Assembly: GCA_963542825.1 (NCBI GenBank)
Contig: CAUTZD010000001.1
Span: forward strand, 22,307-86,306
From: an uncultured Acholeplasmataceae bacterium
GTDB taxonomy: Bacteria > Bacillota_I > Bacilli_A > ML615J-28 > CAG-698
Direction: 5' to 3'
DNA: 64,000 bases
In this document: positions 29,942-32,398 of the stretch, in pieces
How the letters are laid out: each line of letters starts with the position of its first letter
Position numbering within the stretch: the first letter of the stretch is position 1
Notes under the pieces: generated by a model
Seen by the model: only the letters and a program-made list of their open reading frames with translations
Told to the model about the DNA's origin: nothing
The model's database searches: none
Made by a program: the position numbers and the translations under genes

Positions 29942-31951
29942 ATGAATGAGAGTGTTTATATGCGGAAACAACAAAAAATTAGATTAATTATTTTAGGAAT
30001 TATAGCAGCTTTAGTGGGCTTGTTTATTTTTAACTTGACGACTAAAAAGCTTCCGGTTTATGTTAGCTATATTTCTGGATCGTTTATTGCGATTCTTACA
30101 GCTCTTTTGGTTTTCTTAATTATTCGTGAAGGAATGGCAAGAAGGGTTGAATTTTTAGAGCGCCGTGTTTCCCTTTGGAATAACATCTCTTATCGTGTGA
30201 ATATTGCCGGTGAGACGAGTTTTAACAATCTCCAGATGGGAATTATCCTCTATAGTGAAAAACAAAAAGTTGAATGGGCAAATAGCTATGCTAAATCAAT
30301 CTTTAAGAGTCAAATGATTGATCGAGATATTGTTAATTTGTCAGAGCAATTATCAATTGCGATTTCGAACGAAGAGTCAAAATTCGAGATAACTGTTTAC
30401 GATGAAGTTTATGAGTGTACAGTAATGATTAATGAACGTATCGTTTATTTTAAATCGGTTACTGAGCAAAAAAATCTTGAAACAAAGTTTAATGATAAGA
30501 TGCTGGCAATCGGTATTTTTAACCTTGATAATCTTGAACAATCACTAGCGGCGATGGATGCCAAAGATAAAAGTAACCATATTGCGAAAATTATTGCGAT
30601 TCTTACACAGTGGGCGAAGAAGTATAATCTTCTTTTTAAAGGTTATAGTGAAGAACGGTATTTGTTAATTACCGATAGAAAGACTTTAAAGCAAATCATC
30701 AATGATGGTTTTACAGTTCTTGAGGAAATTCGTGAACATTCTTCACGAGAAGGTTTACGAATTTCATTATCGATTGGTTTTGCATCTAGCGATAAACGCG
30801 CTGACGAAATTATGGATAAAGCAACCGAAGAACTCAATATGGCGCTTTCACGTGGTGGCAATCAAGCTGTTGTTAATCTTGACGGCAAAACACTTTATTA
30901 TGGAGCCCGGATTGAATCTTTTGATACACGTAGTAGCGTTACTGTAAAGCACAGTGCTGAAGAGTTCTCTGATATTATTGAAAATGCTAGTAAGTGTTTA
31001 GTCATGGGACACCGTGATATGGATACCGATGCTTTTGGAGCATGTGTAGGTGTCCGTAAAATTGTTGAGAGTCTAGGGAAGGAATGTAAAATTATTTTTT
31101 CTGAAAATTTAGTAGACCCAACTGTTAAAAAACTTTACCAGACAATCGCAAGAGAACACAGTAACTTTTTAAGCGGACTAGTTGAACCAAGTGAAGCAAT
31201 TCGAAAACTTGACGATAAGACACTTTTAATTATTGTTGATGTTCAGTATCAAAATCTTTTCATGGACGAGAAAATTTTAAAGAAAGCAAAACACGTAGCG
31301 GTGATTGATCATCACCGGCGAAACCCTGATGCAATCGAAGGAATTGATTTTCTTTATATTCAACCATCTGCTAGTAGCGCTACCGAACTTATTACCGAAA
31401 TGATTCCATATCTTAAATCGCGGGTTGAACTAACGCCAGTTGAAGCAACGTGGATGGCGATGGGAGTAATTGTCGATACTAATAACTTTGTATACCGTAC
31501 AAGCGAACGAACATTCGAAGCTTTGTCGATTTTACAAAAGTATGGTGCCAACATGACCCAGGCTCATGAGCATCTACGCGATGATTATCGCGTGTTTGAA
31601 CTAAAGACAAATGCTCTTAAAAATGCGGAGATTTTGGAAGATAAATCAGCAATTGCTGTCGTTTCGTGCGATTCGCCAGTTGAGCAGTCGCTCCTCGCAA
31701 TCGTTGCTGATGAACTTATGACAATTGATGAAGTTAAAAAGGCTTTTGCGATTGGACTTGTTCAAGATAAAGTTGTGGGTATCAGTGCTCGTAGTCTTGG
31801 TAGTGCTAATGTTCAAATTATTATGGAACACTTCGCTGGAGGTGGACATTTCACGGCTGCTGCTACGAAGATTCGCAATAAAACAGTCGAAGAAGTAAAA
31901 GATGAATTAATTATGTATTTGATCTCGATTAAAAACGAAGGGAAAGATTTA
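29942..31951 (+). CDS. gdpP: Cyclic-di-AMP phosphodiesterase GdpP (TM-PAS-degenerate GGDEF-DHH-DHHA1). It has no stop codon and continues in frame into rplI.
   Basis: Two N-terminal TM helices, a DHH motif (VIDHHRR), DHHA1 GGGH (AGGGHFTAAA) and the YybT architecture. The frame stays open through to 32398. Confidence 0.8.
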
Positions 31952-32398
31952 ATGAAAATAATACTCCAAAAAGATATTAAAGGACGCGGACTTAAGAACG
32001 ATGTTATTCAGGTGCCAACAGGATATGGCAACTATTTAATTAAACAGAAGATGGCGATTGAAGCAACTGATGACAACCTAAAGCAGTTGCAAGAGCACCA
32101 CGATCACTTGGCTCTAGAAGCTGAAAAAGTCCTTGATGAAGCGATAAAAACTAAAGATTTTATTAATGCTCATAATATCACAATTCCTATCAAGGTTGGC
32201 TCAAATGGCAAAGCTTTTGGTTCAATTACTGCTAAACAAATCGTCGAGCGAATGATGGAAGAATATGGTATTGTTCTTGATAAGCGTAAGCTTGTGTTTA
32301 GTGAAACAATCGACCATTTAGGAACATTTAATGTAAAAATTCAACTACACAAAGAAGTAGTTGCTACTTTAAAAGTTTTTGTAGTTGAGAAGGAGTAG
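31952..32398 (+). CDS. rplI: 50S ribosomal protein L9, in frame with and contiguous to gdpP
   Basis: MKIILQKDIKGRGLKNDVIQVPTGYGNYLIKQKMAIEAT is the L9 N-domain. An internal ATG at 31952 is preceded by the RBS gaagggaaag. Confidence 0.8.
   Translation: MKIILQKDIKGRGLKNDVIQVPTGYGNYLIKQKMAIEATDDNLKQLQEHHDHLALEAEKVLDEAIKTKDFINAHNITIPIKVGSNGKAFGSITAKQIVERMMEEYGIVLDKRKLVFSETIDHLGTFNVKIQLHKEVVATLKVFVVEKE

Follow-up and report, generated by a model that had tools for sequence, protein, structure and literature searches.

A gdpP-rplI fusion with conserved internal L9 start signals in an uncultured Acholeplasmataceae bacterium and its relatives

GdpP (YybT/Pde1), the cyclic di-AMP (c-di-AMP) phosphodiesterase of Bacillus, Staphylococcus and Streptococcus, is encoded between rpsR and rplI-dnaB and combines transmembrane (TM) helices, a PAS domain, a GGDEF domain and a DHH/DHHA1 catalytic module. 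Characterised GdpPs hydrolyse c-di-AMP to pApA; the enzyme is inhibited by (p)ppGpp, and c-di-AMP and (p)ppGpp signalling cross-regulate (PMC10243994). The adjacent rplI encodes ribosomal protein bL9 (L9), and the literature notes the two genes only as members of one operon (PMC4568413). Ordinary GdpP ends 33-46 residues past its GGGH motif at a stop codon of its own. The gene analyzed here lies in a 64,000 nucleotide (nt) stretch of contig CAUTZD010000001.1 from an uncultured Acholeplasmataceae bacterium (the window). It has the domains, catalytic motifs and genomic position of ordinary gdpP, but its frame runs on into L9. The L9 of Geobacillus stearothermophilus (1div) was matched over its full length; unlike that protein, the window bL9 is encoded as the 3' end of gdpP and not by a separate gene bounded by stops, and some of it is presumably synthesised as the C-terminal domain of a membrane enzyme.

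This architecture is already catalogued. NF011110 (PRK14538), 'putative bifunctional signaling protein/50S ribosomal protein L9', has the same architecture end to end, and the window protein matched positions 54-835 of the 838 in the model in one stretch (580.2 bits, E 7e-174). Five other clade members scored 534-634 bits. All tested members, the window protein included, fell under the equivalog cut-off of 707 bits, which indicates that the model was made from sequences of a different branch of this family, presumably Acholeplasma or phytoplasma-type Mollicutes. The window protein is thus a new, divergent member. Full-text literature searches found no paper describing or analyzing a GdpP-L9 fusion, and it goes unmentioned in a detailed survey of the translation machinery of Mollicutes (PMC4014445). 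Three of the findings described below appear to be new, namely conservation of the internal start, retention of the open frame and two duplication/subfunctionalisation events.

Two products are obtained by in-frame internal initiation from infB (IF2-alpha/beta), clpB and cheA. As at the window locus, the internal start in these genes has its own Shine-Dalgarno (SD) sequence and the short product is the C-terminal part of the long one. Their short form is a truncated isoform, whereas the short form predicted here is a different, universally conserved protein whose role in the cell is a separate one. The ubiquitin-ribosomal protein fusions UBA52 and RPS27A likewise carry a ribosomal protein as the C-terminal part of a long-conserved fusion to an unrelated partner. 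These are cleaved after translation, whereas the lineage of the window conserves an internal start and no cleavage motif.

The open reading frame (ORF) at 29942-32398 on the + strand comprises 818 codons, encodes a complete GdpP and a complete bL9 and contains zero in-frame stops. All six Pfam domains exceeded their gathering scores. The membrane anchor consists of two hydrophobic N-terminal helices (residues 14-33 and 38-61, 29981..30124), assigned from Kyte-Doolittle hydropathy and from helices predicted by AlphaFold2 (AF2) at residues 3-34 and 39-96. It is followed by PAS_GdpP (residues 88-172, 30203..30457; PF21370, 53.7 bits, cut-off 27), the GdpP-type degenerate GGDEF domain (GGDEF_GdpP, residues 194-316, 30521..30889; PF24898, 102.5 bits, cut-off 30), the DHH catalytic domain (residues 352-508, 30995..31465; PF01368, 63.4 bits) and DHHA1 (residues 572-657, 31655..31912; PF02272, 40.8 bits), with GGGH (residues 633-636) at 31838-31849. 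The bL9 module (31952..32398) is made up of an N domain (31952-32089; Ribosomal_L9_N, residues 671-716, PF01281, 54.8 bits), a connecting helix and a C domain (32138-32389; Ribosomal_L9_C, residues 733-816, PF03948, 75.1 bits), and it scored 109.5 bits with TIGR00158 (cut-off 58.6). Across a 40-sequence alignment no variation was seen at the catalytic residues H357, D361, D363, D433, D456-H457-H458 and GGGH 633-636, and by homology the window GdpP would hydrolyse c-di-AMP to pApA and be inhibited by ppGpp. A preliminary description of the locus had reported the full GdpP architecture, L9 beginning at the next codon and the lack of an in-frame stop, all of which were confirmed by the ORF check and the six Pfam domains.

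The same description had left it undecided whether this was a real fusion or a lost stop, and had suggested comparing the junction in related strains. An independent assembly (L169) differed at 62/2457 nt (97.5% nt identity, 11 amino-acid changes) and had an identical junction with an open frame and no intervening stop. The 90%-identity cluster of the window protein contains five members from ENA, Logan and NCBI assemblies, all of 812 or 818 amino acids (aa). A search with the whole protein returned 82 further clusters at 33-45% identity with all six domains in one chain of ∼810-830 aa, and the next-ranked matches after the fused clusters were Paenibacillus GdpPs of the ordinary type (653 aa). 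When the fused protein of Candidatus Izemoplasma sp. B36 was used as the query, >115 further fused clusters were obtained from metagenome-assembled genomes of Izemoplasmatales, 'Tenericutes' and Mycoplasmatota. In total ∼200 protein clusters at 33-88% identity have the GdpP-L9 architecture. Fused loci were found in at least 5 GTDB species representatives (L001-L005), including the complete chromosome of Ca. Izemoplasma sp. B36, and in at least 13 metagenome loci; counts from the genome and metagenome collections are samples and lower bounds, not censuses. Sequence comparison thus indicates that the fusion is genuine and ancient. A junction without a stop had been called unusual, which holds among Firmicutes generally but not in the lineage of the window organism, a large wall-less/gut branch of Bacilli in which it is universal. 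PGAP and JGI label the fused proteins merely '50S ribosomal protein L9', a label that on proteins of 810-830 aa hides GdpP.

The internal L9 start is an in-frame ATG at 31952..31954 (+), codon 671, directly after ...ISIKNEGKDL. An internal SD sequence, GAAGGGA (31937..31943, +), lies 9 nt upstream of it within the linker of 4-5 residues (..NEGKDL); the preliminary description had noted an SD sequence here, and it was found again. Anti-SD pairing was computed on the 20 nt before the L9 start against the anti-SD of 16S rRNA. The window site gave -8.4 kcal/mol, equal to ssb and stronger than the gdpP start (-5.9 at Met7, -2.9 at Met1), and 0/21 other in-frame ATGs of the gene matched this value. 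All 18 start-retaining fused loci examined (16 ATG, 2 GTG) had pairing energies of -7.6 to -14.7 kcal/mol; among 437 control ATGs, taken in frame from elsewhere in these genes, only 1.4% reached -7.6 kcal/mol. The linker peptides vary (..DKGDQN, ..EKEES, ..ERGGDS, ..DKGVKE, ..EGGTGL, ..YGGSSEP, ..LLEEEN, ..NEGKDL), and each encodes a GGAGG-like string through different residues (KGD, KEE, EGD, RGG, GGT, YGG). Retention of the SD sequence under varied residues points to a constraint on the RNA and not on the protein. A second L9 gene was absent at 18/18 start-retaining loci, within 64 kb for the window and within flanks of 3-10 kb for the others, and in these loci the fusion is directly followed by dnaB and prfA.

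Approximately 20 clusters (P0040, P0045, P0072, P0079 and others) have Lys (AAG) at the position of the L9 Met, with no purine motif before the AAG (..TKTVSAPVKKVILMKDVNGKGK; -2.5 kcal/mol). L005 is likewise start-less (..KEEEFKKVIL), with AAG for ATG and -2.8 kcal/mol. Since L005 and the P0040/P0072/P0079 clade are far apart within the fused clade, the start and SD sequence would have been lost at least twice. At every start-less locus examined, namely L081-L083 (P0072), L164 (P0079), L166 and L167 (P0040) and L005, a free-standing rplI (147-148 codons) lies 8-15 nt past the fusion stop; this tandem rplI is equipped with an SD sequence of its own, and dnaB and prfA come after it. In P0070, which neighbours the start-less clade, the position is Val (GTG) with AAAGGAGAAG upstream (-9.1 kcal/mol), and a second rplI is lacking. 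Across the loci examined, the presence of start and SD sequence and the absence of a separate rplI co-varied with no exception, as a gene with two products predicts. An internal start codon and SD sequence conserved beyond the needs of the protein suggest a dual-product gene, and we infer from this that both products are actually made. This three-way co-variation lends strong support to the earlier suggestion that L9 can be produced on its own as well.

The tandem rplI products shared 61-65% identity with the L9 modules of P0026, P0030 and P0037, the closest relatives that retain the start, but only 44-49% with the fused domain of their own genome and 38-39% with outgroup L9s. This pattern indicates that the tandem rplI originated through in-situ duplication and is the conservative one of the two copies. 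Within the start-less clade the ratio of non-synonymous to synonymous substitution rates (dN/dS), taken at a near-saturated dS of ∼1, was 0.12-0.22 for fused L9, 0.14-0.21 for free rplI and 0.10-0.15 for the GdpP part. The start-less fused L9 domains still scored 75 and 82 bits with TIGR00158 (cut-off 58.6), and an L9 fold was still predicted by AF2. The fused domain is thus under purifying selection. As it is not decaying, it must do something for GdpP; judged from these substitution patterns, it has selective value of its own.

Five hallmark positions, conserved in >96% of the bL9 sequences compared, were used to follow the domain: G24, an aromatic residue at 25, N27, F89 and G90. The window L9 module keeps G24, Y25, N27, F89, G90 and also S91. 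G24 was present in 81/84 start-retaining fused domains, 118/119 ordinary L9s and 6/6 tandem free copies, and the aromatic residue at 25 in 84/84, 119/119 and 6/6, respectively. For F89 the counts were 82/84, 118/119 and 5/6, and for G90 82/84, 119/119 and 6/6. In the start-less fused domains each of these four positions was lost (0/22), with E or D at 24 and T, N or Q at 25. In the start-less domains of L081 (11999-12433), L164, L166 and L005 (8047-8484), F89-G90 is replaced by KK or LE, and K134 by N in LHKEV. The Lys-rich KDVxGKGK loop and the ANFLI..A.EAT segment were retained in every group. Hallmark loss was convergent in both independent start-less lineages, which argues against a fused domain that simply sits in the normal bL9 site of the ribosome; that placement was downgraded, and the obligately fused form is probably not a canonical, ribosome-incorporated bL9. 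In our reading, the L9 of start-retaining genes, the window's included, would be one sequence with two roles, each of which constrains it, and after duplication the fused copy would be released from the ribosomal role and move to a different optimum.

Maintenance of the open frame was assessed from the ten codons before the L9 start, which evolve fast. Parsimony over 108 fused leaves gave a rough count of at least 360 amino-acid changes, and stops make up 8.0% of the non-synonymous one-step neighbours of the linker codons (26 loci with DNA). If stops were as acceptable as the replacements seen, ∼31 stop gains would be expected; 0 were observed (Poisson P ∼3e-14). No clean un-fusion was found among ∼200 fused clusters, and the open frame therefore appears to be held by selection. 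Two apparent exceptions were inspected. L090 is a contig end. P0204/L168 (3001-5443), the one GdpP close to the Izemoplasma group that seemed to lack L9, crosses the junction (..EETSMKVISD*) and is frameshifted inside L9, with a 106-aa L9_C fragment as the next call. The break is probably an indel error, as the contig name (ctg...l) suggests a long-read assembly; a pseudogene is possible.

A neighbor-joining tree of the GdpP part was calculated from 273 sequences over ∼510 columns, without support values. All fused sequences (108/108) fell in one clade, with the 160-odd unfused Firmicutes sequences outside it. The nearest unfused sister (L006, Izemoplasmatales) reads ...GAG GTA TAG ttt ATG, gdpP and the L9 ATG sharing one frame, and from this layout one substitution in the stop would create the fusion. 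In unfused L048 the ATG immediately follows TAA. In Bacillaceae and Paenibacillaceae the gdpP stop overlaps the rplI start (ATGA, 4 nt; L013, L015, L019-L021 and ∼45 more), and in other Firmicutes gaps are 0-60 nt. The fusion is thus likely to have arisen once, through loss of a stop in an in-frame spacer of 0-15 nt. Both halves of the earlier question were in this sense answered together: the junction is a genuine, ancient and selectively kept fusion that was made by stop loss. The junction comparison also bore out the earlier statement that the order gdpP-rplI-dnaB is ancestral in Firmicutes. In ordinary Bacilli the codons of the conserved GdpP C terminus (..EEGLFE or ..EGG) contain the rplI SD sequence (GGAGG or GAGGGG), which suggests that the C-terminal peptide of even unfused GdpP is shaped by the ribosome-binding site of rplI.

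Taken together, it is likely that one gene gives rise to a membrane-bound GdpP-L9 and to an internally initiated free L9, and that the fused domain has an independent, selected role. Initiation at ATG 29960, with its weak SD sequence, would give an 812-aa membrane-anchored c-di-AMP phosphodiesterase composed of two TM helices, PAS, degenerate GGDEF, DHH/DHHA1, a linker of 4-5 residues and a complete bL9 domain. Independent initiation at ATG 31952, with the stronger GAAGGGA, would give a 148-aa free bL9 destined for the 50S subunit. The fusion would have originated in a single loss of the gdpP stop in an in-frame spacer of a few nt, and would be retained by selection as the GdpP-attached L9 domain serves GdpP. 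Our preferred guess is that the fused domain acts as an appendage, either directed at RNA or the ribosome or regulatory, through which c-di-AMP hydrolysis is connected with the translation apparatus.

The simplest competing view is neutral read-through, in which the stop was lost by chance, only free L9 matters and the L9 tail of GdpP is a harmless passenger. Ancestral layouts (L006, L048 and the Bacillaceae ATGA overlaps) would make such a loss easy, the conserved internal SD sequence and ATG would leave the supply of free L9 unaffected, and AF2 gave no confident contact between L9 and the catalytic domains (predicted template modeling score, pTM, 0.43). A passenger is nevertheless hard to reconcile with 0 clean reversions in ∼200 clusters against ∼31 expected linker stop gains, with a fused domain kept at dN/dS 0.12-0.22 and near-saturated dS in two lineages that have a separate rplI, and with start-less domains whose changes are convergent and not decay; we regard it as unlikely. 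Obligate fusion, in which the full-length protein is the sole product and bL9 does its ribosomal work covalently tethered to membrane GdpP, was rated a little lower still. The open frame, the intact hallmarks of the window L9 and the lack of a second rplI in 64 kb would all agree with it, and N-terminally extended bL9 homologues occur in organellar ribosomes (chains of 196-200 residues), which suggests tolerance, as a lead only. It leaves unexplained why SD sequence and ATG/GTG are present in 18/18 single-copy loci and are lost jointly beside a separate rplI. The gdpP SD sequence (-5.9 kcal/mol) is weaker than the internal one (-8.4 kcal/mol), a ribosomal protein is needed in far larger amounts than a signalling phosphodiesterase, and with a linker of 4-5 residues a dimeric membrane enzyme would lie directly against the base of the L1 stalk.

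Processing of the fusion protein to free L9, as in the eukaryotic ubiquitin fusions, is improbable. The linker is short and exposed between well-folded modules, with a dip in the predicted local distance difference test score (pLDDT) at 661-670, and ubiquitin-eL40 and ubiquitin-eS31 offer a precedent, but the protein sequence of the linker is not conserved, so that there is no recognisable cleavage motif. Cleavage would also make the conserved SD sequence and start codon superfluous and would not account for the fused domain being kept in lineages with a separate rplI. A sequencing or assembly error, or a recent strain-specific stop loss, deserves next to no weight: a single base change would suffice, and otherwise only prior expectation speaks for it, and it is refuted by the identical junction of L169, the five cluster members and hundreds of homologues down to 33% identity.

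Against the dual-product explanation with a selected fused domain stand several points. Loss of G24, the aromatic residue at 25 and F89-G90 was convergent among the obligately fused copies, which speaks against the simplest functional idea, a fused domain seated in the normal bL9 site. The SD sequence of the window (GAAGGGA, -8.4 kcal/mol) is among the weaker ones of the clade. The search for a second rplI covered 64 kb of the window genome and flanks of 3-10 kb in the relatives. The linker parsimony count is anchored at Met and inflated by indels, although the margin is still large. The single origin and the two start losses rest on simple phylogenetics, as the neighbor-joining trees carry no support values. 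Inter-domain geometry in the AF2 models is not confident (pTM 0.43 for the window protein and 0.37 for a start-less one).

A more specific idea is that the L9 domain provides GdpP with a functional sensor or anchor for the ribosome or rRNA, so that c-di-AMP degradation is physically coupled to the translation apparatus; this is offered tentatively, as a possibility we rather doubt. If true, by 'Rosetta stone' logic the gdpP-rplI pairing of Firmicutes, which is near-universal and translationally coupled, would reflect an unnoticed interaction between GdpP and bL9 or the ribosome, which would tie in with the cross-talk of ppGpp and c-di-AMP. It would also present an adaptive conflict, one L9 for two jobs, resolved twice by tandem duplication and subfunctionalisation. 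A fusion kept for so long is the strongest kind of genomic hint that GdpP and bL9 or the ribosome work together. Synthesis of ppGpp takes place on the ribosome, and a ribosome-linked GdpP would offer a concrete, testable mechanism for c-di-AMP/(p)ppGpp cross-regulation. Where rplI serves as a single-copy marker, odd lengths are to be expected, with duplicates in lineages that have a tandem rplI.

The structure of the window protein was predicted with AF2 at a mean pLDDT of 86. The last DHHA1 helix ends at residue 665 and is followed by the linker, and the L9 part shows strand 1 at 670-675, a long helix at 710-743 and the C domain at 745-816. The low pTM leaves the arrangement of the modules relative to one another unpredicted, and no conclusion on contacts between L9 and DHHA1 was drawn. 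In Foldseek searches the catalytic part matched GdpP 5xsi/5xsp (E 3e-35) and the L9 part matched 1div (TM score 0.84, root mean square deviation 2.8 Å) and 7qv1_X (TM score 0.89), the bL9 of the leading ribosome in a collided disome of B. subtilis. A sequence search of the PDB gave 9n0l_A (3e-67) and 5xsi (7e-62) for the GdpP part and 1div (E 1e-31) for L9 over its full length.

An 818-aa fusion had been proposed in the preliminary description; the frame of 818 codons is open, but the product is probably 812 aa from a start at 29960, giving a fused gene at 29960..32398 (+) with the stop TAG at 32396-32398. The first ATG (29942) sits within a -10 box, TATAAT (29938-29943), and all homologues align from Met7 (29960) of the mechanical ORF, which favours the later start. 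The SD sequence of the first ATG is almost nil (-2.9 kcal/mol), and Met7 is invariant. Start calls differ among gene callers (818 or 812 aa), and P0123 was called from Met7.

The only good promoter found was of sigma-70 type, CTGACA-18 nt-TATAAT with a TG extension (29914..29943, +; 11/12 matches). An intrinsic terminator after rpsR (29871..29898, +; 9-bp stem with 6 GC pairs and a T run) divides the rpsF-ssb-rpsR unit from gdpP. A scan for an internal rplI promoter gave only a weak TTGGTA-16-TATTAT (9/12) at 31797-31824 that did not exceed shuffled background. This site lies ∼130 nt upstream of the internal L9 start and could yield a gdpP-independent rplI-dnaB transcript. At the 3' end, the dnaB SD sequence AGAAGGAG (32388..32403, +) lies within the final L9 codons and is followed by TAG, 2 nt and the dnaB ATG at 32401. 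No second rplI lies between the fusion and dnaB or elsewhere within the 64-kb window. The operon is very compact, and the prfA start is the last base of dnaB (33795). The order rplI-dnaB-prfA was present at all fused loci and has likewise been reported for phytoplasmas (PMC3750655).

An alternative genetic code was ruled out, as the neighbouring genes are intact under table 11 and there is no stop of any kind at the junction. A +1/-1 frameshift signal at TTAATG was set aside after consideration: L9 and gdpP share one frame, which makes the TAATG of another frame irrelevant. An Rfam scan of the whole 64-kb window (tRNA, rRNA, riboswitch and leader families) gave zero families at gathering score. 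The rpsF-ssb-rpsR block lies upstream of the fusion in the window and in the Izemoplasma loci and is absent there in the start-less lineage, where synteny is broken. In that lineage (L081/L082 1527-9188, L166 1161-2789) large Flg_new-repeat genes and a 1196-aa protein with only a faint DUF3106 match were found upstream of the fusion. In the window nearly all long ORFs are on the + strand, GC skew is steadily positive and the GC content is ∼34-35%, consistent with a piece of leading strand from a small genome of low GC content.

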